Part shown: positions 234 through 37,166 of the stretch, piece by piece
Position numbering within the stretch: the stretch's first letter is position 1
Layout: every line of letters begins with the position of its first letter
Source: Lingula anatina
Taxonomy: Eukaryota > Animalia > Brachiopoda
NCBI GenBank assembly: GCA_051362555.1
Contig: CM120649.1
Span: 3,472,001 to 3,536,000, forward strand
DNA: 64,000 bases
Direction of reading: 5' to 3'
Notes under the pieces: generated by a model
Seen by the model: only the letters and a program-made list of their open reading frames with translations
Told to the model about the DNA's origin: nothing
Databases searched by the model: none
Made by a program: the position numbers and the translations under genes

Positions 234-332
234 GATGGCAGGACGCCTCTTCATTGCGCTGTTATATGTGGTCACTACGATGTAGCAGCTCTCCTCATCC
301 AGCACGGAGCTGATCTTTCCAGTACAGACGAA
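234..332 (+). CDS. Gene A ankyrin repeat exon (99 bp, phase 0): DGRTPLHCAVICGHYDVAALLIQHGADLSSTDE
   Basis: cag|gat...gaa|gtatgt; TPLH..A..GH...LL..GAD ankyrin consensus. Confidence 0.93.
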
Positions 333-750
333 GTATGTATATGTGTGTTATACTTGAAATATACCACCCCTTCATTAGTTTGTCTGTGTTTTATACGAAG
401 TAATTGAATATCTTTAAAATACCGATAACTAAAAACTGCTAATATTTACTGCTAACATTACACACGGTCTTAATATTAATAAAGTATTTTAATGCTTATC
501 CCTTAAAAGGGATAAACGCTAGCAGCCTTTCCTTTGACAACACATTAGTATAGATACCAACATCTACATAATCTTCCTTACGTGTTTGCGTATATGTCAT
601 CTTCCTTAAGCACTGTTTTTTAAAGATGAAAATAGTTTTGATACATTTAATTAAAAGTGACCCCCCCTGTTTTATAATGATCCATTTACATTTCATACAA
701 TATGTGTCTGTCTGGTATGTCACTTCATTAAAAATATTGTGTATCTCCAG

Positions 751-849
751 TATGGCTGGACGCCTCTTCATTACGCTGCTGAGGGTGGTCACTGCGATGT
801 AGTAACTCTCCTCATCCAGCACGGAGCTGATCCCTCCAGTACTAACAAG
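751..849 (+). CDS. Gene A ankyrin repeat exon: YGWTPLHYAAEGGHCDVVTLLIQHGADPSSTNK
   Basis: cag|tat...aag|gtatgt; 99 bp. Confidence 0.93.
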
Positions 850-1254: not shown

Positions 1255-1353
1255 CTTGGCAGGACGCCTCTTCATTGCGCTGCTAGAGTTGGTCACTGCA
1301 ATGCAGTAACTCTCCTCATCCAGCACGGAGCTGATCCCCGCCGTGAAGACATT
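1255..1353 (+). CDS. Gene A ankyrin repeat exon: LGRTPLHCAARVGHCNAVTLLIQHGADPRREDI
   Basis: cag|ctt...att|gtaggt; 99 bp. Confidence 0.93.
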
Positions 1354-1901: not shown

Positions 1902-1949
1902 GATGGCGGGACGCCTCTTCATTACGCTGCTCATTTTGGTGACTACGAT
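1902..1949 (+). pseudogene. Truncated ankyrin pseudo-exon (DGGTPLHYAAHFGDYD); 3' half and donor deleted
   Basis: Acceptor intact; sequence then jumps into the conserved intron motif tcaaattgagaaatcaaaagaatc. Confidence 0.85.
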
Positions 1950-2342: not shown

Positions 2343-2401
2343 GGGGGGAATCGTCCGGGGGGAATTGTCCTTGGGGGGAATTGTCCGGGGGGGAATTGTC
2401 C
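2343..2401. repeat. Short tandem array of GGGGGGAATTGTCC (4 copies)
   Basis: Directly visible; probably the end of an interspersed non-autonomous element. Confidence 0.8.
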
Positions 2402-2775: not shown

Positions 2776-2865
2776 TTCGGTATAAAGCCCAGTTATTGTG
2801 CACGGTGTCATGGTAATGGTGATATAGACACGCTGCTGAGGAGGTTTGAAAGTGATCATATCCAG
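2776..2865 (+). CDS. Gene A C-terminal capping ankyrin-like exon: FGIKPSYCARCHGNGDIDTLLRRFESDHIQ
   Basis: ttcag|...cag|gtaagt; 90 bp, phase 0; homologous to 28442-28531. Confidence 0.8.
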
Positions 2866-4626: not shown

Positions 4627-4840
4627 GAATTCATGATAACGAGAACGTTGGAGCATGTCTCTGCCGAGATGAGCCTTGATGACTTTTTCCTTCCCACCGA
4701 TGGGATCAATAATAATTTTCCTGGTGAGGTTGAAAAGCAAAAGGTCCAGCGGTTGAAGCAATGGGCAAATTCAAATAATTTCAAAACTATCCAAGGATTA
4801 AAAGCTGGCCTTACAGCTCAAGGACGCGAGGAGCTTTGCG
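4627..4840 (+). CDS. Gene A death-fold-like exon
   Basis: tag|gaa...g|gtgagt; LEHVSAEM...KVQRLKQW...TIQGLKAGLTAQGREELC resembles the death-domain L..W....T...L..AL....R.DL pattern; same 214-bp length as 32794-33007. Confidence 0.75.
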
Positions 4841-5198
4841 GTGAGTTTACTCAGAATAAAAAAAAACGTGAATAATTTTGCAACTTTCTCTACTTTTTAA
4901 ACAAAATCCATGTCAATGTTTTGAACGCCATTTCATTCATTATTTATTTAAACACTGACTGTGCTAGATTGGATACTCCGTTACTCTGTAAATAAATTAG
5001 TTTTGAAGTATTAATAACTGGTTCACTTTATTCACAAAGTCAGGAAATTGGGTATGATATATACCAAACTGTATTATTCTTTTCACTTATAGCAGGGAAA
5101 TATATAATTCACTTTCATGGTAATTAAGCGAATTGCAATTTATAAGAATATATATATATATACATATATATAACCAATACCTATTATACCATTATCCT

Positions 5199-5202
<4 letters not shown>

Positions 5203-5254
<52 letters not shown>
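5203..5254. repeat. (TA)n microsatellite
   Basis: Directly visible. Confidence 0.95.
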
Positions 5255-5256
<2 letters not shown>

Positions 5257-5720: not shown

Positions 5721-6098
5721 CATGGAAGTTGAATCCTGCCATTACGATGCATACCTGATCCACGGCAGTACTGAAGGCAGTTGAGTCACACAAAATACGC
5801 TGCTGCTATGCACCTCGTGATTTCAAGTCTACAGAATCAACCGAGGCAAACATCAATGAAGCGGTGGCATTGTCCAGATGCGCTGTGGATTTCCTGTCTC
5901 GGAACTCCATAAGAGAGAACTGGTGTAAACACGCAAGAGAATTGGCCGTGGTCAAGTCAATTGAGGTCGAAGACTTTGTGGTGATCCCAGCGATTTTGGA
6001 CGTGAAATGGTCGGATTTGCCTTACGGTTACAAAGCCAGAAAAACCATCCAAATGGATAGCCAAGATTTTATCCCCACTCTTGTCAAAGCTATTAAAG
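5721..6098 (+). pseudogene. Gene A TIR exon with 26-nt frameshifting deletion (TGA at 5782-5784)
   Basis: YDAYLIH (box 1), then a frame switch to IRCCYAPRDF...WCKHARE...VIPAIL; 378 bp versus 404 bp in gene B. Confidence 0.88.
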
Positions 6099-7213: not shown

Positions 7214-7407
7214 GTCCGACAGCTGATCCATGCTATGGCGAGCTCCGCAGCGAGAACGAAAACGTAAAACAAGAGAATAATCTACTCCGCAGTGAGAATG
7301 AAAACTTGAAAGCAGAGCTACAAGAAATGAGACAACAACTAGAAGATTCGAATGCGTTGATCAGGCAACAGAAGGCAGATATGCAGAAAGAAGTGACCTT
7401 TAACTAA
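7214..7407 (+). CDS. Gene A terminal coiled-coil exon (PTADPCYGELRSENENVKQENNLLRSENENLKAELQEMRQQLEDSNALIRQQKADMQKEVTFN*)
   Basis: aag|gt, phase 1; heptad-rich with an internal LRSENEN duplication; homologous to 36994-37166. Confidence 0.82.
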
Positions 7408-7690
7408 CTGTAATGTAGATGATGCATCTTGTTAAAGGAAGGAACTTTTTTGTATTTATGTGACTTAATTCTGCGGGGTTGGACGGAATGAGCTTTGCCT
7501 GTAGTTTAAGTCACTATTATCTATATAGCATGGCCCAAGGCTGGACCTTTTGACATCGCTCCTTGCTGAAAATTGCGGGAGGAAGAAAGCTAGTGTTTTC
7601 AATGCTGCGTTGTATGCATCTCCCTATTATGACTCTAATATTAGACGGGGGTAGGGGGGCATTGTCTGGGTAATACGTAATACGTATCTA

Positions 7691-13526: not shown

Positions 13527-13579
<53 letters not shown>

Positions 13580-14228: not shown

Positions 14229-14231
14229 TAA

Positions 14232-16591: not shown

Positions 16592-16741
16592 ATGGCTGCA
16601 TATCGTTCATTCAATGCCACGTTCAAGAACAGTCTCCAAAAAGCTGCAGAGATCGGAGATATCGAAACAGTGCGTCAACTGCTAGAAAGTAAAATATGCG
16701 ATGCCAACGAGAGGACAGACACAGTTGGATTGGGCTTACTT
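16592..16741 (+). CDS. Gene B first coding exon, N-cap ankyrin (MAAYRSFNATFKNSLQKAAEIGDIETVRQLLESKICDANERTDTVGLGLL)
   Basis: L..AA..GD.E.VR.LL N-cap pattern; donor gtaagc at 16742; no signal peptide. Confidence 0.8.
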
Positions 16742-17743
16742 GTAAGCATTGCCAAAAATGAACATGCAAAGCATATTTAGAATTTGCTACTCATATGAAT
16801 AAAAAGGAATTTGAGAATAGTTGATAGTAGTTACACAGTAACATGACTCGCAAACAGTGTACAGAATAGGTACAGCACGGAACTGATCCCTACAGTGAGA
16901 ACGAAGTAAGTATATTTTCTTGTAAATATAAATGTGTGGTGCTTGAAATATACATGTACCTGCTCTTCCTTAGTTTGCTTGCGCTACACAAGCAGTTTTT
17001 AATTGTTTAAAATGCATTTTCGTTCTTGAACAAGTGGGTTTTTAATATTATCATTGATACTTGTGTAAACCGATTCTGGCATGTAATTAATACTTCATAC
17101 TTAAAAATAATCTCAAGTTGAGAAATCAAAATAATCTTAATTGAAAGTCCGGTCCTTAAATCCGTGTATCAAATCATTCGTGAATTATCAAAATAAACCA
17201 CTTAAAAGTTCGTTTTGATACATTAATTGCTGAAAATATTTTTAAAAATAAAACCCGAAGACCAAAGAACTCATACAGAGGTGGAAATTTAAACGTGTTT
17301 TCTTAACAGACGTCTCAGATGTGGCTTGGGCTTAATTGGAATAAAAGTAGTGTTCCCTCATTGAGGCACTGTTGTTTAAAGATGGAAATAGTTTTGATAC
17401 ATTCGATTTACAGTGCACCCCGTTTTGTAATGATCCATTAACATGTGATAAAATACCTTTGGTCGGGGATGTCATTTCATCGAAAAATTTATGTATCTTC
17501 AGGATTGCCAGACTCCTCTTCATTACGCTGCTAGTGGTGGCCACAGCGATGTAGATCAAAGTTGTATTTTTAGGACATAAAGCACACTTATCTTTAAAAA
17601 ATCTAAAAAGTTTTAGTATTATATCTACCTTACACACGGTCTTCATGGAATATTAACAGATAAACGTTAGCAGTCTTCCCTTCAACAACGCATTGTATTA
17701 CATCTACATGTAAATTATCTCCCGTACCTGCTGTTGCGGCAGT

Positions 17744-17788: not shown

Positions 17789-20700
17789 ATGACGAAAAAA
17801 GTTTTGATTCATTCAGTTTACAGTGCACCCTTATTTGTATTGTCCACTTACACGGTATACAATATGTCTGTCTGGTGCGTCACCTCTATGATAACATTTT
17901 GTAGGTACCGGTTGACAGGACGCCTCTTCATTACGCTGCTACGGGTGGTCACTGCGATATAGCGGCTCTCCTCATCCAGCACGGAGCTGATCCCTGCAGA
18001 GTGACCTGGGTAGGTATTTGTGTGGTCATTGGTCTCTCTTCGTTACATACGTAGAAATCAAATATGTTTTATGTATTTTTGCATTAACATATAATGTGCT
18101 TTTAAATATTATTATTGATACGTGAATAAACCAATTGGGGTATGTAATTAATCTTTAATATTCTAAAATTATCTCAAATGTAGAAATCAAAAGAAACTTA
18201 ATTTGAGGTCCGGTCCTTAAATCCGTATATCGAATCATTTGTGAATTTTCAAATTGAAGAACTGTACAGTTGGATGTAACACTTAAATTGCTGAAAATAA
18301 ATTGCTGGTATGTCACTTCACTGAAAGCAGTGTGTTTTCTTAGGATGGCCAGACACCTCTTCATTTCGCTGCTACTGCTGGCCACTGCGATATAGCAGCA
18401 TTCCTCATCCAGCACGGAGCTGATCCCTGCAGAGTGACCTGGGTAGGTATATGTGTGGTACTTGGAATATACCACCCCTTCATTGGTCTCTCTTCGTTAC
18501 ATACGTAGTAATCAAATGTATTTTATGTATTTTTGCATTAACATATTATGTGCTTTTAAATATTATTATTAATACGTGAATAAACCAATTGGGGTATGTA
18601 ATTAATCTTTAATATTCTAAAATAATCTCAAATTGAGAAATCAAAAGAAACTTAATTTGAGGTCCGGTCCTTAAATCCGTATATCGAATCATTTGTGAAT
18701 TTTCAAATTGAAAAACTGTACAGTTAGATTTATCACTTAAATTGCTGAAAATATTCCTTAAAAGATGTAACCCGAAAACCAAAGAAGCCGTACAAAGGAG
18801 GAAATTTGAAATGCATATGAGTTTTAAGAAAGACACTTCAGATGTCTTTGAAATAACTAAAAACCTAATATTTTCCCAACATTAGACACGGCGTTACTGG
18901 ATTATTAACGGATAAACGTTAGCAGACTTTCCTTCAATAGCACAATATTATAAATATCAACATGTAAATAAATCCCCTTTACCTAGTTTTTCATCTCTTT
19001 GAGGCAATATTGTTTAAATATGAAAATAGTTTTGATTCGTTCAATTTACAGTGCACCAATTTATTATAATGCTCCATTTACATGTCATTAAATACCTGTC
19101 TGTCTGGTATGTCACTTCATTGAAAGCAGTGTGTTTTCTTAGGATGGCCAGACACCTCTTCATTTCGCTGCTACTGCTGGCCACTGCGACATAGCGGCTC
19201 TCCTCATCCAGCACGGAGCTGATCCCTCCGGTGCAAACAAGGTATGTACATGTGTGGTACTTGAAATATATGCCGCCTCTTCATTAGTCTGTCTTTGTTA
19301 TATACATATTAATTGAATATCTTTATTGCATTTTTGTTTACGAAAATGCAGTAGTATCGAAGCAGTATCGAAGCATCAACGCAGTAGTGGTGTGGAGCAT
19401 ATTTTCAGTAGAAATAGCCTACTACAATTCTACTCCAAAAAGAACATATGTCTACTCCAAAAAGAACATATACAGAGACGAGCATTAATGCAGTAGATTA
19501 GCAGCATGATAGAAGCATGTTTCAAATATGCTAATTAGATACCATATCGAAGCAGATTTGAAGCATGTTTGCAGTATGATTGCAGTAGTCTACTGCGCTG
19601 GAGTATCTACTGCGTTTTCGTGCTCATGAGCTGTAATATTTTTATGTATTATTATTGATACGTGTGTAAACCGATTGTGTCATGTAATTAATCTTTAATA
19701 TTTATAATAATATCAAATTAAGAACAGAAAAAATCTAGTCCGGTCCTTTCATCCGTTTGTCAAAACATTTCTGAATTTCTATGAAATGCTCAAAATCTTC
19801 CTTGAAAATGTTAACCGAAAACTATAGAACAAAGTTGGAAATCTGAAATACATGTATGCTTTATGACAGACACCTCAGGTGTTTTTGAAATAATGATAAC
19901 TAAAAACTGTTAATATTTTTCCAACATTACACACGGTCTTAATATTAATGGAATATTTTAACGGATAAACATAAGCAGTCTTCCCTTTAACAACACATTA
20001 GTGTTGTTGGTGTAGGCTTCATGAAAATCATCTCCCTTACCTGCTGCTGTGTACTAATATGTCATCTTTTTGAGGCACTGTTGTTTAAAGATGATAATAG
20101 TTTTGATTCTTTCAATTTTGAGTGCACCCCGTTTTATAATAAGCCATTTACATTGCGTGAAATATCGTAATATATTATAATGGATGGGTGTATAAACCAA
20201 ATGTGACACATATGTTATCAATATTAATACGATATAACCTCAAATAAAAAAAAGAAATCAAAAGAATCTTAATTCAAAGTCCAGACCATAAGTTTGTTTA
20301 TCAAAAAAATTGTGAATTTTAAAAATTGAGGTACTGTTGTTTGAAGTGGAAAATAATTTTGATTCATTCAGTTTACAGTGCACCCCGTTTTATAGTGATT
20401 TATTTGCATGATATTGTATATCTTCAGGGGGGTCAGACGCCCCTTCATAGCGCTGCTTTTGGTGGTCACAGTGATGTAGCAGCTCTTCTCATTCAGCACG
20501 GAGCTGATCCCAGCAGGTACAGTGTGGTAGGTATACCGTACTTGTAGTACTTGAAGTAAACCATCCCTTCACTGTTCTCTCTTTGTTATATACGTAGTGA
20601 TTGAATATATTTAATGTATTTTCGGTATGTAATTAATCTTTAATACTTTATAATAATCTCAGTTTGAGGAAGTGAAATAATCTTATCTCAAGGTTCAGTC

Positions 20701-23700
20701 CTTAAATTCGATTATCAAATTAATTGTGAATTTTCAAAATAAAGAACTATACAGTTTAATTCAAGGCTTTTAATTGCTGAAAATCGTCCTTGAAGATATA
20801 ACCAGAAAACAAAAGAAGTCGTGCAAAGGTGTAAACCAAAAATGCATTACACACGCTCTTAATATTTATAAAACATTAACGGATAAACATAAGCAGTCTT
20901 CCCTGAAGAAACACATTAGTATTGTTCATGTAGCTTCATGTACTTCATCCCCTTACCTGCTGCTCTGTACTAATATGTCATCTCTTTGAGGGACTGTTGT
21001 TTAGAGATGACAATAGTTTTGATTCGTTCAATTTAGAGTGCACCCCGTTTTATAATAATTCATTCTGATACTTACGTCATTTCATTGAAAAAATTGTTCA
21101 TTTTCAGGATGCTCGGAGTCCTCTTTTTGACGCTGCTATGGGTGGTCACTGCGATGTAGTAACTCTCCTCATCCAGCACGGAGCTGATCCCTGCAGTATG
21201 AACTGGGTAGGTACGTGTGGTAATTGGTGAAATCGTCTCTTAAATGACTACGTCTTGGGTTGGCTCCATTCAAGTAGCTGTGACCTGGTGCATGGATACG
21301 AGCTGTCTTTGTTATATACGCAGTAATTGGATATCTTTATTGTATTTTCGTACATGAGTATACGTTTTTATGATTATTATTAGTGATACGTGTATAAACC
21401 GCTTTTGCCATGTAATTATTTTTAAACATTTATAATAATCTCAAATTTAGAAATTAAAATAATCTAGTGCGGTCCTTTGTTCCACTTATCAAAACAATTG
21501 AGAATTTTTAAAATCAAGAACTATAAGTTCGTTGTTATACTATTAACTGCTGAAAATCTTCCTTGAAAATGTTACTGAAAGCCAAAGGACTCGTACAAAC
21601 ATATGCATGTGTGTTTTATGACAGACACCTCAGATGCCTTTGATTATAATAATAATTCATTTACATGGCATGATATATTAATTTTTTGTTTGTCTGGTAT
21701 GTCAGTTCATTGACAACATTGTGCATCTTCAGATGAGAGTGACGCCTCTTCATGACGCCGCTATGGGAGGTCACCGCGATGTAGCAGCTCTTCTCATTCA
21801 GCACGGAGCTGATCCTTGCAGTGAGGACTGGGTAGGTATATGTATGGTACTAGAAATAAATAATTTGTATTATTATCGATTTATGTATAAACCGGATGTG
21901 GCGTGTAATTTTTACTTAATATGCCACAATGACCTCAAATTGAGAAATCAAAAGAATCTTAATTCAAAGGGGTAATAACTCTTCGTGTGACGAAGCTGTT
22001 GGCTTGTCTTCTTCATGTTACGCGAGGTAGCAAATACAACTCAGATATTATCTTTTTTATTATTTATTGAACTACTGTCCAGTTATTACCCGCGCCGCTT
22101 CCTTCATTTCTATTCCTACCTCATACAATCTCTAGCGGCCTTCTCTCTGTTTACACTAAGCGTAGTTGTATAAATACCATAAGAGCATGTCAATCAACCT
22201 AAGTTACTCTACTAAACACTCCCCGCTCTTATTCACTGCATGCTGTCACTTACTAACGTTCCATTCGTATAATTGAGATCTATATTTCACAATAAAAACA
22301 TTGTGAACAACTCATAGAAATACAAAATGTTCTGTTGTACTGCAAAAAGGACAGTTATGGGGAAAGGAGACAAGATGGCGTAGAGGATGACACGAACTCT
22401 AGGACACGGGACATAAATTGGTCTTTCTTGACATAGACAAGTGAACACAACGTCTGATGTGGTACATTCTGAACAAGTGTACATCCGTGAACGAGCTGAT
22501 CGGGTGGAGAAAGCACAAATAAGGTGAATAACTGATATTTTTTAACCTCATCACATAGACATAGTCTGCGCGAACGTCGCATAGTGGATGATACACACTG
22601 ACTACATTAAATTTCACGCAGTGCTGTCAACCTTTCAGCATGTCATCCAAACACACAAAAAACACTAAAAAGGGTGAGCCTACACCCAAACGTACGCACA
22701 GCGAAGTCTCCAATACAAGTGCTGAAGAAAATAGCAGCATTATCTTAGCGGAACTAGAAGAAATAAAATCTTATATGAAAGACATGATAAACAAAGACGA
22801 ACTGAAAGAACTAGTAACCACCTTAGTTACAGAAATGTTAAAAGAAATGAAAAAAGAAATGGGTTCACAAATCAACAATATGCGAGAGAAATTAGACTTC
22901 CTGGAATTTGAAAATAAAAACCTTACAGAAAACATTGCAAGGAAAGACAAAGATTTACTTAAATTGAAAGAGGAGATAAAAGATTGAGGCGGACAAACGA
23001 TCAAACTACAACGAACAGTATTCACGTAAGAACAATATTAAAATCTACGGGATAAAGGAAGAGACAAAGGAGAACACCAAGTCCGTCGTACGCGACACAT
23101 TGAAGGAAGTAGCACAGATAACACTCCGGGATGATGACATTCTAGCAGTACATCGTATACCTGGGGCAAAAACACAACAACCGAGACCTATAATTTTACG
23201 AGTGAATAACACGGAGACAAAAGCTAAATTCATGAGGTGCAGAAGGGCAATGAAAACCTCGAGGCAAAACTTGAGACTGGCAGATGACGTCACAAAAAAG
23301 AACGCGCAACTTATCCAGCGCCTCGTTAACCACCCTGAAATTGATCAAGCATGGTACTTTAATGGGTCAGTTTATGGTCGGCCGAAAGACAGCACAAAAA
23401 GGGTGAAATTTGACCTGCACGATGATATTAATTTAAAGATAAGAAACGCTTGAGCATGAACTTTATTCCTCCTTTTTCCATTTTCCTCTTGCTTTAATTT
23501 TGCACATAAAACCAATTGTCGCACAAAACTGAACGCTCTCCCATGTACGTTTTCTTATATGTAGTATATTGTGTGAGTGTATGTTTGTGTTTAAATGAGG
23601 TGAGTAAGTGGATAATGGCCGTGCGTAAGACTGAGATTGTGTGCGAAAGTAAAAGTGTGCACGTGATACATGTCTGTTTGTCAAGCGATGAAAAGAATGG

Positions 23701-26700
23701 TGAGGCTCATTGTCGTACATACATGTATATCAACGAAAACGTTATGTCTGTCAATACATTAAAATGCTATTATGAGTTTTGATTTTAGTATATTATCCTT
23801 AAATGTCCGGGGGCTAAATAATTTTAAGAAAAGAAAGGGAGTATTTAGGTGGTTACATAAAAGGCCTGAAAATGTTTTCCTCCTACAAGAAACCTACAGC
23901 TCGCAGAAAGTCGAAAAATTATGGCGCGCTCAGTGGGGTGGAAAGGTTTGGTATAATCATGGTACTGGGCATAGCAAAGGGGTGATGATTTTATTTAAAA
24001 ATAACATAGAATATGACATTATAGACACAGTTACAGACCCGGATGGTCGTCTTTTAGGCGTGAAAATTAAAATTGGTACGAGCACTTTTCTTATGTGAAA
24101 TATATATGCCCCAAATCAAATAAATGAACAAGTTGAATTTTATAGATTTCTCTATAAAGCACTAGCTAAATATGAATCTGATTATGTAATTATAGGGGGT
24201 GACTTCAACTGCACATTGTCCAAGCTAGATAAACATGGTGGACTGTCCACACACATTAAAGATAAAGTTATACATGAAATACAAACTATTATGGAAAAAT
24301 ATCATTTAAATGACACATGGAGAAAGTTCCATGGTGCAGAAAGAAGATACACATGGAAAAACTCCGAATCAAACATCTCCTGCAGACTAGACTACTGGAT
24401 AACATCTAACGAACTTATAGAAAATTGTTTTATAGAAAAGGCGGAGATATTGTACGCACCTTACACTGATCATGATGCAATATCTTTGTTTTTAAAGACA
24501 AAAGATGTGACAGTTAGAGGGCGAGGGTTTTGGAAACACAATAATACTCTACTAGGAGACGAAAGATATATTAACGAAATGAAAACTGTAATTAATGAAG
24601 CAAAAAACAGATACAATTACTTAGAGGACCGTGGTTTAGCATTTGATATGATAACAATGGAAATACGGCAGTTTTCAATAAAATTTTCAAAGCAAAAATC
24701 TAAACAACATAGAGAAAATGAAAGAGACATTTGGAAAAAAATCAACGTGCTACAAGCCGAGATAGACAATCAATTTAATAAAGAAAAAGCTAAAGAATTA
24801 GAAAAACTTAAGACTGAACATGATTTAATCTTAGAAGCTAAAACTGAAGGTGCAATAATGCGTAGTAAAGTGAGATGGTACGAAAAGGGCGAACGCAATA
24901 CAAATTACTTTATCAACTTGGAAAAACGGAATCGAGTCAGAAATACAATAACAAAACTAGAAATTAATGATACACTAACAGTAACTAACGATAAAGATAT
25001 TCTACAAGAACAGGGAAAGTTTTACGAAAATTTGTACACCTCACAGAACACTACCATTAACGAGAGAATCTCAAACAAATTTTTCAATGTACAAAATATA
25101 CCCCAAATTCCAAACGACCTAAAAATCGCATGTGAAGGAAAGCTAACCATCAACGAGTGCAAAAACGCACTCAAAGAACTTACAAAAAAGAAGAAGAAAA
25201 CCCCGGGTGTTGATGGGCTCTCCGCAGAATTTTACATGAAATTCTGGGAAGAATTAGGAGAGGAAATTGCAGACTGTTTAAATTTTGCTTTTGAAACTGG
25301 TCAGTTAAATATTAGCCAACGACAGGGCATAATAACACTAATTCCCAAAAAAGACAAGGATAGACACCGTTTGGAAAACTGGCGACCTATTTCTTTGCTA
25401 AGCGTAAGCTACAAAATAGCCGCAAAGGCACTTGCAAAACGAATGGAAACGACTTTACCAACCATTATCAACAAAAACCAAACCGGGTACGTTAAAAAAA
25501 GATATATCGGTGAAAATATAAGACTCATCTGGGATCTTATGTACTCAACAAAAAGGCAAAATAAAGAAGGGATGGCGATTTTCTTAGATTTTAAAAAAGC
25601 GTTCGATTGCATTGAATGGGAATTTATAAAAAAATGCCTGAAAATATTTAACTTTGGCCCTGACTTCATTCAGTGGTTTGACATTATGTACGCCAATGCT
25701 TTCAGTTGTATTACAAACAACGGATATTCCTCGCGATTCTTTTCAATTACAAGAGGTGTAAGACAAGGGTGCCCACTGTCCGGCCCTCTATTCGTGCTGG
25801 CCGTAGAAATACTAGCCTGCGCAATACGCGCAGATCCATCCATACGGGGAATCACTATTGATCGTCATGAACACAAATTATGCCAATATGCCGACGATAC
25901 AACGCTATTTCTAAATGATGTTAGGTCCGCTAAAAACGCATTGAAATTAATATCTGAATTCAAACAAAGTTCTGGTTTAGAACTAAACTTGAGCAAGTCC
26001 GAAGCCCTGTGGCTTGGAAGTAATAGATTCAACAACGAAAAGCCCCTCGGGTTGCTATGGCCAGATAGACCAATAAAAGCTCTCGGAATTCATTTCTCTT
26101 ATGATTACGAAAGCTGTAGGTTTCTAGACTTCGATGGTAAAGTTGATCAAATTGAAAGCTGCTTAACCTTTGGTCCAGCAGAGACCTCACATGGATTGGA
26201 AAGATACAAATACTAAAAACATTGGGTCTGGCTAAACTGGTTTATGCTAATACAGTTCTTGAGACCCCAAATGATATTATTTTGAGGATAGATGCTTTAT
26301 TCAAAAAATTTCTATGGAATGATAAAAAACCAAATTTAAAGCAGAATACATTAATAGCCCCAAAGAGTAAAGGTGGTTTAAATTTGACGCATGTGCCATC
26401 GCACGTGCGGTCTCTGAAGGCCTCAATGGTTAAGCGCATAATGTTAGCTGACAACGATGATCCGTGGGTAATAAACATACTGAAATATTTAAGAAGTGTG
26501 GGAGGAAAACTCATTTTCAGTTGTAATTATGAACTTAAGAATATTAACATTTCGGACATGCCACCTTTTACGTAGCCATGCTAGATGCATGGAGTGATTT
26601 AATACAAACAGACCCTAATAATGCCTCCGATATAAAGAAACAGATAATATGGAATAATAGATTCATACTTGTAAACAAAAAGTCAATATATCTAAGGCAT

Positions 26701-29700
26701 TGGTCAAAAGCCGGAGTTAATTATATTCAAGATATCATAAATATTAATGGTGAATTTATATCATTAGAAGAAATAATAAATCAACACAACTTCGATATTA
26801 AGCTACCGAATTTTCTAGAATACGAAAAAGTAAAAAAATCAATTCCGATATTATGGTTACGTAAACTTCGGGAAAATGCAGAATCAGTTGACAACACAGA
26901 CTCAGATGAGATAGTATGGACTCTTGCCTCTACAAAAAACATTTACGATAAGCTAATAGAAAGAAATGTAATAAATTTACCCACAGCAAGTTTGCATCTT
27001 ATCAAATCAGGCATAAGTGAAAATGATTGGCAGAGAGTTTTCTTGATACCATTTGAGTCTGTCAAAGAAACTCAACTACAAGTAATGCAATACAGAATAA
27101 TTCACAATGTGCTGTACACAAATTCTACACTGTTCAAAATGAAAATAGTTACTAGCCCAGGATGTACTAACTGCCATATGAAAGAAACAATAATACATCG
27201 TTTTGTGGAATGTGTACGTGCAAGAAATTTTTGGATTGTATTTGAAAACTGTTGGAACATTCCGAATAATACCATACACTTCAGAAAAAATGAAAAAACT
27301 ATAATGTACGGGTGTCTGTCAAGCGACCAGCGCGTAAAAGCTTTAAATTTCTGTATTATTGTGGCTAAACAATTCATAAACAAAAATTCAGAAAATCCAT
27401 CAGTCTATGATTTTGAACTGTTTCTGCATTTTCTTAGCCAGAAGAAGAAAATAGAAAAATACATTGCTATAAAGACAGGAAAAGAAGATAGGTTTAATAC
27501 AAAATGGAAACGCATTCCTACCATAACGTGTTAAAATTTTCACCTCTAGTACGCTATAGTTGCCGTTATGTAGTTCACAACAAGCATGTATACGTGTAGT
27601 ATGTATGGATGGATGAGTGAGTGAAAGTATGTCTATATATTTATGTTCTTTTTTATTTTTCAGTATTTAATTACCGTAATTGCCATCAGTATTATATGCA
27701 TTTAATCTTTGATTATCTGTCTAAACATTTCATTAAATATGTTATAGTTGCCGATATGTAGCTCACGCGTAGTATGCATGGATGGATGAGTGAGTGAGAG
27801 TATTTCTATATATTTACGCTCTTTTTATTTATCTATTAGTATTTAATTACCGTAATTATCATCAGCTTTGTTTTACATGCATTCAATCTTTGATTATCTG
27901 TTTAAATATTTCATTATATATGTATATTTTCTTTTTTTTTTTTCTTTGAGTGAATAAACGCATTAAAAAAAATAAATAAAAAAAATAAAAAAAGGACAGT
28001 TATAGCTGTTATTCTGATATCTGAGCTTGTCTTTAAACCAAGTGACCTCCATTGATAGCTATACTTAAGAGATTATAACAAAAAGACTTTTTAGAAAAAT
28101 AAAAACATGGGCTAACTTTGAATGTAAAAATGGATTCATTAACCATTGGTAATTATGGGGAAATCGTTGTTTACTCCAGTATTTTTTTTCCAAAACGAAG
28201 AGTTATTATCCCTTTAATTAAAATATTAAATCAATATGTTTGAAAAAGATAAGTTGTGGTTCTTTTAGGAGGTGTCAATAAAGTTCGGATGAATAACTAA
28301 AATAGTCCCATTTACACCCAATTATGAAAAGGATAAATAATGGTATTATCATACTAATGTTGATGCTCTGTTGTACTGTTATTCTTAACGCAATGGCCAT
28401 TGAATAAAACGTGTTGAATAAATCAGTTTCTTTGGTTTTAGTTCGGCTTGAAGCCCAGTGATCTTGCACAGGAAGCTGGTTATGATGTTCTATGCTTGCT
28501 GTTAAGGAAATTTGAAAGTGATCAAATCCGGGTAGGCTAACGCACAGCATACAATTAAGTATATAACATTAAATATAATAATGGTTATGTAACATCATTA
28601 AATCGACACATATCGTAAATTAATATTTGTATTTGTCTTGCTAACCATTTGAATTGGTAGGTTCGTTTGGGCGTTTAATACTGCATGTGTAACCATACGA
28701 CCTACATGTAACCGCCTTGACTGCCATCCAACGGGTCTAAAACCTCACTGGCTTAGAACATTTCTGTAATATGGATGATATTACAAGGCTTTATTTCTAA
28801 TATCAATCCAATTTTTTGTCTTATCATCTAGTGAGGGCACACCTAGTCAATCCCATTTATATCCCGCTAAAATAATTATGCTTCCTTCAGATTGATCCGG
28901 TTCCTTTTAATTGTGATATATGTATTAAGAAATAAAGTCATTATCCACGGTCCGAGGTTGTGTATTCTGGGAAGAATTAGGAGAGGAAATTGCAGACTGT
29001 TTAAATTTTGCTTTTGAAACTGGTCAGTTAAATATTAGCCAACGACAGGGCATAATAACACTAATTCCCAAAAAAGACAAGGATAGACACCGTTTGGAAA
29101 ACTGGCGACCTATTTCTTTGCTAAGCGTAAGCTACAAAATAGCCGCAAAGGCACTTGCAAAACGAATGGAAACGACTTTACCAACCATTATCAACAAAAA
29201 CCAAACCGGGTACGTTAAAAAAAGATATATCGGTGAAAATATAAGACTCATCTGGGATCTTATGTACTCAACAAAAAGGCAAAATAAAGAAGGGATGGCG
29301 ATTTTCTTAGATTTTAAAAAAGCGTTCGATTGCATTGAATGGGAATTTATAAAAAAATGCCTGAAAATATTTAACTTTGGCCCTGACTTCATTCAGTGGT
29401 TTGACATTATGTACGCCAATGCTTTCAGTTGTATTACAAACAACGGATATTCCTCGCGATTCTTTTCAATTACAAGAGGTGTAAGACAAGGGTGCCCACT
29501 GTCCGGCCCTCTATTCGTGCTGGCCGTAGAAATACTAGCCTGCGCAATACGCGCAGATCCATCCATACGGGGAATCACTATTGATCGTCATGAACACAAA
29601 TTATGCCAATATGCCGACGATACAACGCTATTTCTAAATGATGTTAGGTCCGCTAAAAACGCATTGAAATTAATATCTGAATTCAAACAAAGTTCTGGTT

Positions 29701-32700
29701 TAGAACTAAACTTGAGCAAGTCCGAAGCCCTGTGGCTTGGAAGTAATAGATTCAACAACGAAAAGCCCCTCGGGTTGCTATGGCCAGATAGACCAATAAA
29801 AGCTCTCGGAATTCATTTCTCTTATGATTACGAAAGCTGTAGGTTTCTAGACTTCGATGGTAAAGTTGATCAAATTGAAAGCTGCTTAACCTTTGGTCCA
29901 GCAGAGACCTCACATGGATTGGAAAGATACAAATACTAAAAACATTGGGTCTGGCTAAACTGGTTTATGCTAATACAGTTCTTGAGACCCCAAATGATAT
30001 TATTTTGAGGATAGATGCTTTATTCAAAAAATTTCTATGGAATGATAAAAAACCAAATTTAAAGCAGAATACATTAATAGCCCCAAAGAGTAAAGGTGGT
30101 TTAAATTTGACGCATGTGCCATCGCACGTGCGGTCTCTGAAGGCCTCAATGGTTAAGCGCATAATGTTAGCTGACAACGATGATCCGTGGGTAATAAACA
30201 TACTGAAATATTTAAGAAGTGTGGGAGGAAAACTCATTTTCAGTTGTAATTATGAACTTAAGAATATTAACATTTCGGACATGCCACCTTTTACGTAGCC
30301 ATGCTAGATGCATGGAGTGATTTAATACAAACAGACCCTAATAATGCCTCCGATATAAAGAAACAGATAATATGGAATAATAGATTCATACTTGTAAACA
30401 AAAAGTCAATATATCTAAGGCATTGGTCAAAAGCCGGAGTTAATTATATTCAAGATATCATAAATATTAATGGTGAATTTATATCATTAGAAGAAATAAT
30501 AAATCAACACAACTTCGATATTAAGCTACCGAATTTTCTAGAATACGAAAAAGTAAAAAAATCAATTCCGATATTATGGTTACGTAAACTTCGGGAAAAT
30601 GCAGAATCAGTTGACAACACAGACTCAGATGAGATAGTATGGACTCTTGCCTCTACAAAAAACATTTACGATAAGCTAATAGAAAGAAATGTAATAAATT
30701 TACCCACAGCAAGTTTGCATCTTATCAAATCAGGCATAAGTGAAAATGATTGGCAGAGAGTTTTCTTGATACCATTTGAGTCTGTCAAAGAAACTCAACT
30801 ACAAGTAATGCAATACAGAATAATTCACAATGTGCTGTACACAAATTCTACACTGTTCAAAATGAAAATAGTTACTAGCCCAGGATGTACTAACTGCCAT
30901 ATGAAAGAAACAATAATACATCGTTTTGTGGAATGTGTACGTGCAAGAAATTTTTGGATTGTATTTGAAAACTGTTGGAACATTCCGAATAATACCATAC
31001 ACTTCAGAAAAAATGAAAAAACTATAATGTACGGGTGTCTGTCAAGCGACCAGCGCGTAAAAGCTTTAAATTTCTGTATTATTGTGGCTAAACAATTCAT
31101 AAACAAAAATTCAGAAAATCCATCAGTCTATGATTTTGAACTGTTTCTGCATTTTCTTAGCCAGAAGAAGAAAATAGAAAAATACATTGCTATAAAGACA
31201 GGAAAAGAAGATAGGTTTAATACAAAATGGAAACGCATTCCTACCATAACGTGTTAAAATTTTCACCTCTAGTACGCTATAGTTGCCGTTATGTAGTTCA
31301 CAACAAGCATGTATACGTGTAGTATGTATGGATGGATGAGTGAGTGAAAGTATGTCTATATATTTATGTTCTTTTTTATTTTTCAGTATTTAATTACCGT
31401 AATTGCCATCAGTATTATATGCATTTAATCTTTGATTATCTGTCTAAACATTTCATTAAATATGTTATAGTTGCCGATATGTAGCTCACGCGTAGTATGC
31501 ATGGATGGATGAGTGAGTGAGAGTATTTCTATATATTTACGCTCTTTTTATTTATCTATTAGTATTTAATTACCGTAATTATCATCAGCTTTGTTTTACA
31601 TGCATTCAATCTTTGATTATCTGTTTAAATATTTCATTATATATGTATATTTTCTTTTTTTTTTTCTTTGAGTGAATAAACGCATTAAAAAAAATAAATA
31701 AAAAAAATAAAAAAAGGACAGTTATAGCTGTTATTCTGATATCTGAGCTTGTCTTTAAACCAAGTGACCTCCATTGATAGCTATACTTAAGAGATTATAA
31801 CAAAAAGACTTTTTAGAAAAATAAAAACATGGGCTAACTTTGAATGTAAAAATGGATTCATTAACCATTGGTAATTATGGGGAAATCGTTGTTTACTCCA
31901 GTATTTTTTTTCCAAAACGAAGAGTTATTATCCCTTTAATTAAAATATTAAATCAATATGTTTGAAAAAGATAAGTTGTGGTTCTTTTAGGAGGTGTCAA
32001 TAAAGTTCGGATGAATAACTAAAATAGTCCCATTTACACCCAATTATGAAAAGGATAAATAATGGTATTATCATACTAATGTTGATGCTCTGTTGTACTG
32101 TTATTCTTAACGCAATGGCCATTGAATAAAACGTGTTGAATAAATCAGTTTCTTTGGTTTTAGTTCGGCTTGAAGCCCAGTGATCTTGCACAGGAAGCTG
32201 GTTATGATGTTCTATGCTTGCTGTTAAGGAAATTTGAAAGTGATCAAATCCGGGTAGGCTAACGCACAGCATACAATTAAGTATATAACATTAAATATAA
32301 TAATGGTTATGTAACATCATTAAATCGACACATATCGTAAATTAATATTTGTATTTGTCTTGCTAACCATTTGAATTGGTAGGTTCGTTTGGGCGTTTAA
32401 TACTGCATGTGTAACCATACGACCTACATGTAACCGCCTTGACTGCCATCCAACGGGTCTAAAACCTCACTGGCTTAGAACATTTCTGTAATATGGATGA
32501 TATTACAAGGCTTTATTTCTAATATCAATCCAATTTTTTGTCTTATCATCTAGTGAGGGCACACCTAGTCAATCCCATTTATATCCCGCTAAAATAATTA
32601 TGCTTCCTTCAGATTGATCCGGTTCCTTTTAATTGTGATATATGTATTAAGAAATAAAGTCATTATCCACGGTCCGAGGTTGTGTATTCCGAGGCATTTT

Positions 32701-35700
32701 TCAAGACATTAATAAAAAAACAATTCAAAGAAATAAATAAGCAAATGTTTGACGTTTATAAGACAAAAATTATGCAACATTTTGTTTTTTCAGAAATTCA
32801 TGATAACTAGGACGTTGGAGCATGTCTCTGCCGAGATGAGCCTTGATGACTTTTTTCTGCCCACCGATAGGATTATTAATATTTTTCCTGTTGAAGTTCA
32901 AAAGCAAAAAATGCAGCGGTTGAAAAAATGGGCACATTCAAAAAAATTCAAAACTATTCAAGGAATAAAAGCTGGACTTACAGCTCAAGGACGAGAGAAG
33001 CTTTGTGGTGAGTTTACTCTGAATAAATACAAATTATGTATGAATAACTTTGCGACTTTGTCTTCTTTTTTGTTTGTTCTGTGAATCTTATTTCAATGTT
33101 TTGAACGGTATTTCAGCAATTATTTATATATTCAAACACCGACTGTGCTTATTTCGATACTCCGTTACGCTGGCATGTTTATGGTCATCAGAGTAATATT
33201 GTACCTAAAGAAAAGTTTAGTTTATATATAACTAGTTCTTTTTCTTCCGCCAACTACATATTTATCTTGTTAATTTTTGACAGTAAAAGCGCTGTTGGTG
33301 GACGTGGGGTTCTTCATTATAATGACTCGACATGTAAACGCAATAAAAACTTCCAATTATATTTCAGTTATTGCTGCAGAACGTTATGCTAACGTTGCCA
33401 AGGTGATCACAGATATGTCTTGGAAACGATACGAAAGTCTCCGTGAAGATCTTTCAACAGCCCAGTTTATGTTCCAAGAGCTTCCAATACCTGCGTTAGA
33501 AGCACAGAGCCAGGAAATCAGGTATGCTATAAACCATACTTAGCATTTAATATGTTCCACATTTCTACAGCAGAGAAGAATTTTGGCGTATGTGATATAC
33601 ATCTCTCACATCTGAGAGTAAGTAAGTCTTCATGAAATATTTATAGCGGGTAAGTTCATATCTTACAAGCGAATACTGAAGTAAAAAAAACTGGCCAACC
33701 TCAGCTGTGACACTTATTATTTCATTAAAACTTATTTTATTACCCTAGCATGGAGCATGAATCCTTCCAATATGATGCGTTCCTGATTCACAGCGGTGAG
33801 GATAAACCTAAAGTCGAAGAAGTTTTGGAGCTGCTCGAGTCACGTGATATCCGTTGTTGTTATGCACCACGTGATTTCCTACCCGGAAGAAGCATATTAT
33901 CTTGCATAGAAGACGCCGTGGAATTGTCCAGGTGTACTGTAGTCATGGTGTCTGAGAACTTTATGAAAAGCACGTGGTGCCAGCATGAACGAGATGTGGC
34001 CGAGGTCAAGGCAAAAGACACGGAAGGTTATTCGGTGATCCCTGTTCTTTTGGGCTTCAAACCGTCAGATCTGCCAAGTGCTTACAAAGTCAAAAAGTTT
34101 ATCCTTGCTGATAGCCAAGATTTTATTCCCACATTGGTCAAAGCTATTGAAGGTATTTTTCTCTCTAGAAGTCTTTATCTCATGGGTTTTATTTCCCTAC
34201 ATTATTAATTGAAACAGCAACTAAACAAATCAAACTTTGTTAACGCTAAAATGCTGCAATGCTTCTATTGAGGGGCCTCTTGTACTAGAAATGCACCATG
34301 TTCCATAATTTACCACCTGACTATCATTCTAATAACGATGCGCGCGTTATACGTCACAGGTCTTGCATAACTACCCACGTGCTACGATTTTTCCCTTGGG
34401 GGGGCAACAAGCGGCCATTTTGTACAGGAGCAATGCATAGATGGGTGAAAACGATACGTTGTTTTTAACCGAAAACGATGTCCCCGGGATGAAACTGCCA
34501 ACACCAAAAGTAAAGGAGAATACCAACGTTGTTTTGAAACGATGTGGTTAGCCTGTCAGTGGCGAGTTGGGGAGAAAAGAGCAGCACTGATTGCAAGGTA
34601 CTGTTTACACGTGAACCGGCAAAGTTAATGATAATTTCATGTTGCAAAAGCAAAATTAAATCAGTTAGTTATTTTCCAAACGATATTATTTGAATAGCAG
34701 ATACATAGATCAAACTAACAACAATAAAATTTTTGATGACATTGATTGAAACCTGCGGTGCACGATAGGTTGAGGAGGACACTGCCACAGCAAGTAATGC
34801 ATGAATTTTGTTACATAACACCGTATGCTTGTGTCATTGTTAACTCTGCGGTATTATTACTCAATTTACTGCTTAAATTAATACCTGATACTATTTCTCA
34901 GGCTACCAAGTACAAATCACCTTATTTTGTGGCAGTTGACCTCCATGTTCCATCTTGTGTGCAGGTTGTTTATTATTATTTTCATTATTATTATTATTAT
35001 TTGTTCAAGCCCATTTTGATAAAGTGGCTATGCTTTAACAAGAGAAATTTATGCTAAGTTTAAAAGATTAAATCATCAGTAGTATATACAATTAAAGCTA
35101 TTTGATTATGCATTATTTGATTTTCAATTATCTTGATTATGATATGAGGTTTCTGCCTTTTTCTCTTGCCCTCAAATCAATATCTAACAAGTAAATTGAT
35201 AGTGCTTTATTACAATTTTTGCTTTATACTTTCAGATGTAAAAACTGTGTAGCAGTTGGTAAAGCTGTAGAGATTGATGTGAGCATAGATCAGGGGAAAT
35301 GGTATTAGAGAAACCAGGAGGACAAGACATAGATAATGTACTAGTAGATCCATCATCACAGCAAGGATAGATGGTGTGATCTTGTCCCTGAAGCTGTGCC
35401 TCAAGTTTTCAACAGGTTGAGTCCTTACTAAGACAAGCTGCTGCGGTGTGAATTGCAATATGTACATTCAGGTTATACGTGGCAGATTTATGACAAAAGA
35501 GACCTTCACAATATACTTCAAAGGAGTTATTCTTGCATCTATGCCTCATCAAAAGTACACAGTTACAGTGACTAGAACATTGTTTGCAAATAGTGAAGCA
35601 GTGGAGGCTGCAAAGTGCCATTGTTTTTCAGTATTAAGAATGACAGTATCTGTTTTTTTATTTATTTTTATTTTTCATTTTTAATGGGAAGGAGACTCAT

Positions 35701-37166
35701 TTTGTTCTTTCTATGCCCATTCAGTTAAGGGTTGGTGGCAATATATGGTAAATCTGTCATGCCTGTATGTAGAATTTCTCTGGCTCAAATTTCCACATTT
35801 ATTGGGTGCATTATGAGGTTGCCTGACTGATTAATGAGGTTACTTGTAGAAATATCTTGCTTACACATTTCTTGTGATTTTTTTACTGCTATATACAGAT
35901 GATTATTCACATCTAAACAGTGGTGTGTGAAAGGAACATGTACTTGGTATTTGCATTTTAGAACTGTAGAATGTGTACCAGCAGGGTTATATTTCATAGT
36001 ATATCTGCGAATGTTTCTAAAAATAAGCTTCATGTTTGATAATTAATTGGTTTGAAATAAATAACCCAAATAAAATCAATTCATTTTATATTTCACATAA
36101 TCTGTTTTTATTATTCTCCTAAGCATTTAATCATAACATCTCCCATCATTATACTGTTATTGTGCAATAACATTGAAAGTTTCCAAGTTTTTATTAACAG
36201 GTTGATGCTAACGTATCAACCTGTTATGTATTATAAGTGAATTTAAGCATATTTCCTTACTCAAATGTATCAAACATACCACTGTCATAATACCGGTAAA
36301 GATACAGGTAAAGATGACACCATTAATAACTGGGTTTACAGCGCTGTTAGTGCAGAATGGTTAGTGTCAGATTGTTATCTGATAAAGTTTGCTACTTGTA
36401 CCTGGGAGCAAAAGGTCTGGCACTTGACAATCAAGTTGATAAAATCACAAAACGCCTGTAGAAAATAGAGCATACCTGCCCAACATTGATTTGTTCAGAT
36501 TCTTGACTAAGGGGTGCGTTACTGGTGTCAAGGGCCAAGACTGGAACTTAGGGGTTTGGCATGTCACTGGACATTCCCCTCGATTTCTGCCCAAATCTAA
36601 TAAAGCCTCAGTTGCTTAGCTTTAACCAAATTTCCAATACCTACAGGTTGTGTTGTTTAATGCTTGGGGTCTCTTCTCTGGCGGCGGTTAATTGGGGACA
36701 CCTGTGTGGCCTGTCAACGCACCTACATTGTAGATTCACTTTTGCCGGTGCCACATTTTCCATTGCCGTAAATATCAAATTCGTGAATAGAATGAGGAAA
36801 AAATGACAATTATGAAAAAATGTTTTTTGGAAGTACCTGTCACCTTCGCCACAGTAACCATATGGGCTGTGTTGCCCCCCCCGCCACAGGCGACACCTTG
36901 CGGAGCAAGCGTGCGTAATCCAGGGTGCAACTGAAAATAACCTTGTCGCGCGACCTTATTAGGTTATAGCGTATACATATTTTATATTTCTAGGCTCAAC
37001 AGCCGACCCGCCCTATGGCAAACTTCGCACTGGGTATGAAAGTATGAAGCAAGAGGTAGAAAGACATAAGATGGAGCTCCAAAAAAAAAGTCAGCGACTT
37101 GAAGATTCAAGTGCATTAATCAGGCAACTGCGGGCAAAATTGGAGGCCACATCACTTTCTGATTAA
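16592..37166 (+). CDS. Gene B: ankyrin-array - death-fold-like - linker - TIR - coiled-coil protein (putative intracellular immune receptor/adaptor)
   Basis: Exons 16592-16741, 17905-18009, 18344-18442, 19143-19241, 20428-20526, 21108-21206, 21733-21831, 28442-28531 (duplicate 32164-32253), 32794-33007, 33368-33521, 33749-34152 and 36994-37166; splice phases are compatible and the joined frame is open. Confidence 0.85.
16870..16905 (+). pseudogene. 3' remnant of an ankyrin exon (VQHGTDPYSENE); possible 36-bp in-frame mini-exon
   Basis: ag|gta...gaa|gtaagt, followed by the conserved intron unit. Confidence 0.6.
17503..17554 (+). pseudogene. Truncated ankyrin pseudo-exon (DCQTPLHYAASGGHSDV)
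   Basis: Acceptor intact; 3' half and donor missing. Confidence 0.82.
17905..18009 (+). CDS. Gene B ankyrin exon (105 bp, shifted acceptor): VPVDRTPLHYAATGGHCDIAALLIQHGADPCRVTW
   Basis: No AG at the usual position; an in-frame AG lies 6 nt upstream; donor gtaggt. Confidence 0.72.
18344..18442 (+). CDS. Gene B ankyrin exon: DGQTPLHFAATAGHCDIAAFLIQHGADPCRVTW
   Basis: tag|gat...tgg|gtaggt; 99 bp. Confidence 0.9.
19143..19241 (+). CDS. Gene B ankyrin exon: DGQTPLHFAATAGHCDIAALLIQHGADPSGANK
   Basis: tag|gat...aag|gtatgt; 99 bp. Confidence 0.92.
19339..19622. mobile_element. Small MITE inserted in an ankyrin-unit intron
   Basis: Inverted ends tacgaaaatgcagtag / ctactgcgttttcgtg; absent from the sibling introns. 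Confidence 0.7.
20428..20526 (+). CDS. Gene B ankyrin exon: GGQTPLHSAAFGGHSDVAALLIQHGADPSRYSV
   Basis: cag|ggg...gtg|gtaggt; 99 bp. Confidence 0.92.
21108..21206 (+). CDS. Gene B ankyrin exon: DARSPLFDAAMGGHCDVVTLLIQHGADPCSMNW
   Basis: cag|gat...tgg|gtaggt; 99 bp. Confidence 0.88.
21733..21831 (+). CDS. Gene B ankyrin exon: MRVTPLHDAAMGGHRDVAALLIQHGADPCSEDW
   Basis: cag|atg...tgg|gtaggt; 99 bp. Confidence 0.9.
22640..23453 (+). pseudogene. LINE ORF1 (coiled coil + RRM-like + CTD), frameshifted near 22985
   Basis: Coiled coil, then EQYSRKNNIKIYG...AVHRIP...PRPIILR...LADDVT in a second frame. Confidence 0.88.
23772..27534 (+). pseudogene. LINE ORF2 (APE endonuclease, reverse transcriptase, C-terminal CCHC) with frameshifts near 24095, 26170 and 26570
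   Basis: SLNVRGL, LQET, GGDFN, RLDY, TDH, WRPISLL, LDFKKAFD, GVRQGCPLS, QYADD, CTNC...H...C. Confidence 0.95.
28442..28531 (+). CDS. Gene B C-cap ankyrin-like exon: FGLKPSDLAQEAGYDVLCLLLRKFESDQIR
   Basis: tag|ttc...cgg|gtaggc; homologous to 2776-2865. Confidence 0.82.
28964..32685 (+). repeat. Tandem duplicate of 25241-28963 (3' half of the LINE, MITE end, C-cap exon)
   Basis: Identical ORF translations at an offset of 3723/3722; ATTC microhomology at the junction. Confidence 0.95.
32164..32253 (+). CDS. Duplicate of the gene B C-cap exon
   Basis: Identical to 28442-28531, with splice sites intact. Confidence 0.7.
32794..33007 (+). CDS. Gene B death-fold-like exon
   Basis: cag|aaa...g|gtgagt; KMQRLKKW...TIQGIKAGLTAQGREKLC. 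Confidence 0.8.
33368..33521 (+). CDS. Gene B linker exon (VIAAERYANVAKVITDMSWKRYESLREDLSTAQFMFQELPIPALEAQSQEI)
   Basis: cag|tt...ag|gtatgc; phase 1 to 2, which bridges the death-fold and TIR exons. Confidence 0.82.
33749..34152 (+). CDS. Gene B TIR domain exon
   Basis: YDAFLIHSGED (box 1), CYAPRDFLPG (BB loop), VSENFMKSTWCQHE, VIPVLL. Confidence 0.95.
36994..37166 (+). CDS. Gene B terminal coiled-coil exon (STADPPYGKLRTGYESMKQEVERHKMELQKKSQRLEDSSALIRQLRAKLEATSLSD*)
   Basis: tag|gc, phase 1; homologous to 7214-7407. Confidence 0.82.

Follow-up and report, generated by a model that had tools for sequence, protein, structure and literature searches.

A stretch of 64,000 nucleotides (nt) of DNA from the brachiopod Lingula anatina (assembly GCA_051362555.1, contig CM120649.1, positions 3,472,001-3,536,000 of the forward strand), here called the window, contains two copies of a multi-copy Lingula gene family, gene B, which is intact, and gene A, which is broken. 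The two copies span 234..37166; all coordinates are positions in the window. The proteins combine ankyrin repeats (ANK), each specified by an exon of its own, with a helical domain predicted to adopt a death fold, a TIR domain and a coiled coil (CC). The ankyrin exons have been duplicated in tandem together with their introns, genes have arisen and decayed, near-identical copies differ in their cassettes, and the codons of the predicted ankyrin binding groove show an excess of amino-acid change, indicative of strong diversifying selection. We consider it likely that the proteins are cytosolic immune sensors in which the ankyrin groove would cluster the protein and death-fold and TIR assemblies would signal, while the cassettes vary under selection on the groove.

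A motif scan followed by a check of the splice sites identified eight canonical ankyrin exons of 99 nt, all in phase 0 and bounded by AG and GT, which begin at positions 234, 751, 1255, 18344, 19143, 20428, 21108 and 21733. In a ninth exon of 105 nt (17905-18009) the acceptor is shifted 6 nt upstream, in frame. An earlier note on this DNA had proposed 99-bp phase-0 exons with one repeat each, and this is what was found, the 105-nt exon being a variant. A loose exon pattern yielded nine matches on the plus strand, consisting of the eight exons and a chance match at 16021 that is not ankyrin, and 0 matches on the minus strand of the window or in 50 shuffles. Both exons tested matched Pfam ANK (E 1e-11 for A1 and 2.6e-10). 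The exons are spaced 504-647 nt apart in gene A and 408-1285 nt in gene B, and the exon-plus-intron units are mutually homologous, introns included (about 65-90% identity), which confirms that every ankyrin exon lies in its own repeated unit of 0.4-1.3 kb. Three broken exons are scattered among the intact ones. In the list, XP_013406475.1 is a Lingula RefSeq model.

234..332, plus strand: gene A ankyrin exon A1, 99 nt, phase 0; 33/33 identical to the last repeat of XP_013406475.1
751..849, plus strand: gene A ankyrin exon A2, 99 nt
1255..1353, plus strand: gene A ankyrin exon A3, 99 nt; matches repeat 2 of XP_013406475.1 in 31/33 residues, the mismatches falling at positions 8 and 12
1902..1949, plus strand: gene A broken ankyrin exon, 5' half only, lacking a donor
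16869..16905 (approximate), plus strand: broken ankyrin exon, 3' piece only
17503..17554, plus strand: broken ankyrin exon, 5' piece only
17905..18009, plus strand: gene B ankyrin exon B1, 105 nt, which has lost the normal acceptor and begins after an in-frame AG 6 nt further upstream
18344..18442, plus strand: gene B ankyrin exon B2
19143..19241, plus strand: gene B ankyrin exon B3
20428..20526, plus strand: gene B ankyrin exon B4
21108..21206, plus strand: gene B ankyrin exon B5
21733..21831, plus strand: gene B ankyrin exon B6

Small high-copy insertions with very high contig depth and many loose ends occupy 19340-19623 and about 21970-22290 in the ankyrin introns of gene B.

The twelve exons of gene B all have AG/GT ends and splice in silico into a single open frame of 594 amino acids (aa), in the order N-cap, six ankyrin repeats, C-cap, a helical exon of 71 aa, linker, single-exon TIR domain and a coiled-coil-like tail with weak coiled-coil Pfam matches only. 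An alternative N-cap donor at 16723 (588-aa product) was dropped for the one at 16741, which has the stronger consensus and fits the length of the paralogue. No transmembrane-grade stretch was found in gene B, whose most hydrophobic 19-mer reaches only 1.31, as expected from the earlier reading of a protein with no obvious transmembrane segment.

16592..16741, plus strand: gene B start and N-cap exon, donor 16741; RNA coverage from diverged reads
22344..28003, plus strand (sense): intronic long interspersed nuclear element (LINE) with open reading frame (ORF) 1 and a frameshifted endonuclease-reverse transcriptase-zinc finger ORF2; includes the 15-bp target-site duplications
28964..32689, plus strand: second copy of a 3.7-kb tandem duplication, 99.97% identical; C-cap exon at 28442-28531 and 32164-32253
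32164..32253, plus strand: gene B C-cap exon, 90 nt
32794..33007, plus strand: gene B predicted death-fold exon, 214 nt; low RNA coverage in 2/4 runs
33368..33521, plus strand: gene B linker exon, which completes the last predicted death-fold helix and adds another helix
33749..34152, plus strand: gene B TIR domain on a single exon; TLR-type, with the BB-loop Pro and the alphaC Glu
36994..37166, plus strand: gene B coiled-coil exon and stop; TIR-to-CC splice in four RNA reads

The last ankyrin intron of gene B measures 10 kb and carries the LINE (5.6 kb). The 15-bp target-site duplication at 22344/27989 shows that the two flanks of the element were once contiguous, which supports the join of the ankyrin array to the C-terminal exons. 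The LINE is full-length and young, and its poly(A) end could truncate transcripts after the array. Two tandem copies of 3,727 bp (25241-28967 and 28964-32689), which begin inside ORF2 of the LINE and repeat the C-cap exon, differ by one base. This duplication is probably an assembly artefact; if real, it would provide a second in-frame C-cap exon. The RefSeq start of model P0001 and the 1619-aa model P0003 were rejected as mis-joined to ORF2 of the LINE.

Gene A enters from the edge of the window, and its N-cap lies outside; the linker exon is largely gone, and a deletion of 26 nt shifts the frame of the TIR exon. Two tandem paralogues with the full layout had been claimed, which is correct for gene B but not for gene A. 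Its C-cap and helical exon are identical to XP_013406475.1 in 101/101 aa, and the RefSeq TIR-CC models XP_013382850.1 and XP_013406477.1 match its TIR domain at 99-100% and are free of the deletion.

2776..2865, plus strand: gene A C-cap exon, 90 nt
4627..4840, plus strand: gene A predicted death-fold exon, 214 nt
5031..5051, plus strand: 3' end of the gene A linker exon, the remainder missing in the window
5721..6098, plus strand: gene A TIR exon with the 26-nt deletion and frameshift
7215..7410, plus strand: gene A coiled-coil exon

Selection on the groove is revealed by the ankyrin units themselves. In 18 repeats, positions 1, 3, 8, 11, 12, 31 and 33 are variable, with a mean entropy of 2.5 bits versus 0.64, and in the 49 repeats of subfamily 2 positions 1, 3, 8, 11, 12 and 33 vary. 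Six of the variable positions are presumably those randomised in designed ankyrin repeat proteins (DARPins), and we take position 8 to face the same groove. Aligned DARPin repeats vary at 3, 8, 11 and 12, and a DARPin repeat consists of 6 binding and 27 framework residues (PMC5777970; papers with PMC numbers are cited for those parts of their text that were available). In three pairs of gene A units, the upstream introns differ in 19/180, 14/173 and 6/178 columns and the framework third positions in 1/26, 1/26 and 0/26, whereas the first and second positions of the seven groove codons differ in 7/14, 9/14 and 10/14 (Fisher 6e-4 to 5e-10). Change in the groove codons of these three youngest pairs is thus about 5-20 times that in the adjacent introns; with all units included, groove divergence exceeds intron divergence in 30 of 36 pairs, which are non-independent. 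As the groove sites had been picked after the sequences were viewed, an unguided codon test was added, in our own implementation and with nine 33-codon sequences. Model M2a was preferred over M1a (likelihood-ratio test (LRT) 45.8; omega 8.2 on 21% of sites), the sites being 1, 3, 8, 11, 31 and 33; gene B alone gave an LRT of 9.3 (p 0.009) and a more diffuse site set. Support was also obtained from nine near-duplicate repeat pairs of the RefSeq paralogues, in which 17 of 27 differences fall on the seven positions versus 5.7 expected.

Such variability might be mistaken for selection if the family were mostly decaying, its arrays growing mechanically and its surface under relaxed constraint. The broken gene A, the three exon fragments, the LINE in gene B, the scarcity of RNA and the variability of the same positions in ordinary ankyrins would all suit neutral repeat churn of this kind. 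Relaxed constraint, however, cannot surpass the neutral rate, and the excess of groove over intron change in the three youngest pairs largely refutes this explanation, which is made more improbable still by the conserved framework codons and by ten RefSeq models that retain the whole layout; we regard it as very improbable.

Repeat number and order differ between near-identical copies. Gene A of the window reads A1, A2, A3, broken unit, C-cap, and XP_013406475.1 reads X, an A3-like repeat, X', A1, C-cap; at one locus, RefSeq isoforms possess six and three repeats. As these comparisons rest on RefSeq gene models, errors of assembly or modelling may contribute to the differences. A contig from DNA run X2 that passes in register from the 5' half of B6 into the 3' half of B4 was not counted as an extra unit, as the joint crosses 38 bases identical in the two exons and may be a graph artefact. 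The summed contig depth on the ankyrin exons, far above that of the flanks, is no measure of copy number and was not used.

Paralogues were collected by phmmer against 1.84 billion representatives and by two word-index searches. Their count rests on protein records only. A hidden Markov model (HMM) of the helical region matched 21 of 161 fetched proteins, all of them Lingula RefSeq models or older versions and none an ANKDD1 protein; after removal of one isoform and two older versions, about 18 distinct models remain. Ten contain ankyrin repeats (1 to 14), the helical domain and TIR in one model, and three further models are TIR-CC only. The models come from scaffolds with 12 different lengths, and a single scaffold of 212 kb carries seven of them; some may be alleles separated by assembly. 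In XP_013379346.1 the gene B TIR exon recurs with 100% identity. A paralogue of 725 aa, XP_013395417.1, has 11 ankyrin repeats and the C-terminal layout of gene B. A tree of 17 helical domains, from which P0003, P0011, P0154 and P0014 were left out as duplicates or fragments, contains well-supported subfamilies and groups genes A and B with XP_013395417.1. Variants include P0102 and P0155 (ANK-death fold-coiled coil, TIR-less), P0021 (tandem TIR-CC-TIR-CC) and P0015, a related TIR-CC fused to C-terminal TPRs. No member outside Lingula was found by phmmer, word-index or helical HMM searches of collections from which other brachiopods may be absent. The word-index search with residues 405-725 of P0002 returned only P0002 itself, and in a profile search with alignment A1 all of the 60 matches listed were ankyrin proteins. 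RefSeq labels the family ankyrin-3, tankyrase-2-like, cortactin-binding protein 2-like and toll-like receptor 5.

The helical exon and the start of the linker are predicted to form a death-fold domain that is nearer to FADD than to MyD88. In Pfam, the helical exons of genes A and B matched nothing of the death clan; Foldseek gave no match at E<=0.001, phmmer against the PDB 0 matches at E<=10 and the Atlas structure search rows of TM<0.4 only; the single-sequence AlphaFold model of P0001 (pLDDT 35.7) was unusable. The death-fold-like domain of the earlier note is thus retained as a predicted fold that Pfam does not see, and its TIR domain matches Pfam TIR_2 (E 7.7e-19). The TIR domain is of the TLR type and nearer to TLR2/TLR1 than to MyD88, so that of the MyD88-like module the order survives, with a predicted death fold N-terminal to TIR, but the affinity of neither domain does. 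NACHT or NB-ARC, which the note had also found lacking, gave no Pfam match in P0001, P0002 or the scanned family members, and other domains cover all 594 aa of gene B. The alphaC Glu, present in gene B, is found in 10/18 members and lost in 8/18; the BB-loop Pro, also present in gene B, is kept in 7/18 and lost in 11/18.

The TLR-like character and degeneration of the TIR domain, the TIR-less members and the number of Lingula TLRs, 25 (PMC8609888), would be in keeping with adaptors, decoys or inhibitors of Toll or death-receptor pathways, whose groove evolves under pathogen antagonists or, paralogue by paralogue, with fast-evolving host receptors, the proteins themselves sensing no microbes. 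Arguing against this possibility, which we consider improbable, is the limitation of change to a few groove codons together with the gain and reordering of repeats, which is the specificity-determining repeat pattern of fungal HIC NLRs (PMC13449251).

Four RNA runs were compared with the C-terminal half (6-30% of each run read) and two with the array. The death-fold, TIR and CC exons had low coverage in two of the four, and four reads contained the TIR-to-CC splice exactly as predicted; none of the C-cap-death fold-linker-TIR junctions was seen in the runs examined. In the array, the N-cap and ankyrin exons were covered and introns at repeats only, and loose ends continued into a further ankyrin exon or C-cap-like sequence (consensus agreement 0.66-0.78). 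Because most reads are only 85-95% alike to the window, their origin must be paralogues or a diverged population. A transcribed and spliced repeat element occupies part of the intron between the TIR and CC exons of gene B (34300-36000; GT..AG joint from about 34597 to 35236, 5-34 reads in each of the four runs); its reads, 90-99% alike, come from other copies, and its frames gave no Pfam match.

Several observations weigh against a variable immune sensor. Ordinary ankyrins also vary at the groove positions in alignments, so entropy alone proves little. The intron and exon trees of the units conflict, both weakly supported, and this conflict, like the 38 bases shared by B4 and B6, makes it likely that recombination has occurred and could have raised omega. 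In two DNA runs, one of which may be the source of the window itself, contigs match several gene B units in the arrangement of the window with 0-4 differences, at odds with wide variability. Finally, the death-fold and TIR exons had no RNA coverage in 2/4 runs and the linker exon none in 4/4.

The earlier proposal of a cytosolic sensor with interchangeable ankyrin cassettes is nevertheless favoured by the architecture, the turnover and the selection on the groove; for its binding and signalling, we infer ligand, partners and output as follows. Unequal crossing-over between homologous introns would add, remove and reorder cassettes while the frame is kept, exon skipping would supply further variants, and microbes would be the selective agent on the groove residues. 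The groove would bind a pathogen protein or an altered self protein, and binding would cluster the receptor, with help from the coiled coil. In such clusters, the death-fold and TIR domains would nucleate a signalling assembly with death-fold adaptors, either FADD/caspase-8 or IRAK/MyD88, ending in NF-kB activation or cell death, and, unlike in NLRs, no NTPase switch would be involved. More tentatively, the family might be a natural DARPin library whose cassettes are reshuffled between alleles and skipped in splicing, such that the surfaces differ between individuals or even cells and are coupled without an intermediate to the death-fold and TIR modules; this we regard as possible but doubtful.

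Selection and shuffling also characterise fungal het genes (PMC13449251), which raises the alternative of non-microbial self/non-self recognition or genetic conflict, such as allorecognition, gamete compatibility, transmissible cancer or surveillance of selfish elements, with killing by the death fold or a TIR NADase. The alphaC Glu in gene B and ten members would fit a NADase of the SARM1, plant or bacterial type, but TLR TIRs likewise keep this residue in alignments. To our knowledge, TLR TIRs are not NADases. Lingula is solitary and the proteins look cytosolic, which makes cell-surface allorecognition unlikely, and the alternative as a whole appears quite improbable to us.

The sensor proposed here resembles the fungal high-internal-conservation (HIC) NLRs with ANK, TPR or WD40 repeats, e.g. 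HET-E/HNWD of Podospora, in which near-identical repeats with few hypervariable, positively selected positions are gained, lost and shuffled (PMC13449251). Repeat similarity, at least 0.7 there, is 0.75-0.86 in 10/10 Lingula arrays (by our own consensus-similarity calculation, not T-REKS); common to both are diversifying selection at few repeat positions and an attached cell-death or signalling domain. In Lingula, however, NACHT/NB-ARC is lacking, the sensor is N-terminal and each repeat has its own exon, duplicated along with the intron; function and inter-individual polymorphism have been demonstrated in the fungi, whereas the Lingula family is known from sequence. Because it has no NTPase domain, it does not belong to the NLRs. 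The ROCO-LRR and NB-ARC-TPR genes of the brown alga Ectocarpus (PMC3341825) likewise devote a separate phase-0 exon to every repeat and show shuffling of exons, birth and death of genes, repeats under diversifying selection and a presumed immune role, but they encode LRRs or TPRs with a GTPase or ATPase core, in contrast to ankyrin, death fold and TIR with no NTPase in an animal. MyD88 is cytosolic and shares the order death fold, linker, TIR; it is a conserved adaptor, whereas the Lingula family is multi-copy and fast-evolving and has an ankyrin array and a coiled coil in addition. ANKDD1A/B also have an ankyrin array followed by a death-fold domain (Atlas rows of 0.85-0.86, ankyrin-driven and of the level of a lead) but are conserved across animals, and we know of no TIR or coiled coil in them such as follows the death fold in Lingula. 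The LRR ectodomain and transmembrane helix of Toll-like receptors are absent from the family. The ecTIR-DC families of Gerdol et al. are characterised by conservation across invertebrate phyla; members of the present family were found in Lingula only, in collections from which other brachiopods may be absent. Death-fold/TRADD-N expansions of sessile marine invertebrates, Lingula included, combine a constant death-like core with variable repeats, among them ankyrins, are expanded in brachiopods and were proposed to sense invaders (PMC8195603); they carry TRADD-N, and the available text describes neither an ANK-death-TIR-CC family nor exon-level cassettes. Nor is the Lingula family described in the available parts of PMC6321704, PMC5094078, PMC11463336 and PMC8609888. 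The literature search did not find the architecture described; the survey of Lingula immunity by Gerdol et al. 2018, outside its scope, may list these proteins. The ANK-death fold-TIR-CC architecture is real and apparently undescribed.

Elsewhere in the window, a gene of glycosyltransferase family 7, beta-1,4-galactosyltransferase-like, has exons on the minus strand at 54306-55622 (Pfam 4e-19 and 1e-17). The plus-strand segments 43055-43233 and 48384-48562 are 69% identical, with no Pfam match at E<=0.001; the second is a small cysteine-rich exon ending in CxxxLCN, presumably reminiscent of Ly6/uPAR three-finger proteins. The GC-richer region 10850-14250, with short internal repeats and inverted matches and no Pfam match, probably consists of nested non-autonomous DNA transposons.

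The means by which invertebrates lacking adaptive immunity diversify their intracellular recognition are still to be explained, and the Lingula family offers a compact, testable case. Variation is confined to seven codons of a 33-residue cassette attached to a constant effector part, and techniques developed for DARPins are available to exchange cassettes and identify ligands. Domain surveys would miss the family, since its RefSeq names are unrelated and its death fold is invisible to Pfam. A design seen so far mainly in fungal NLRs and brown-algal receptors is here extended to an animal and to proteins lacking an NTPase. If the proteins indeed form a natural DARPin library, they would form a class of their own among variable cytosolic receptors, occurring in a lophotrochozoan and operating without the NTPase switch of NLRs.
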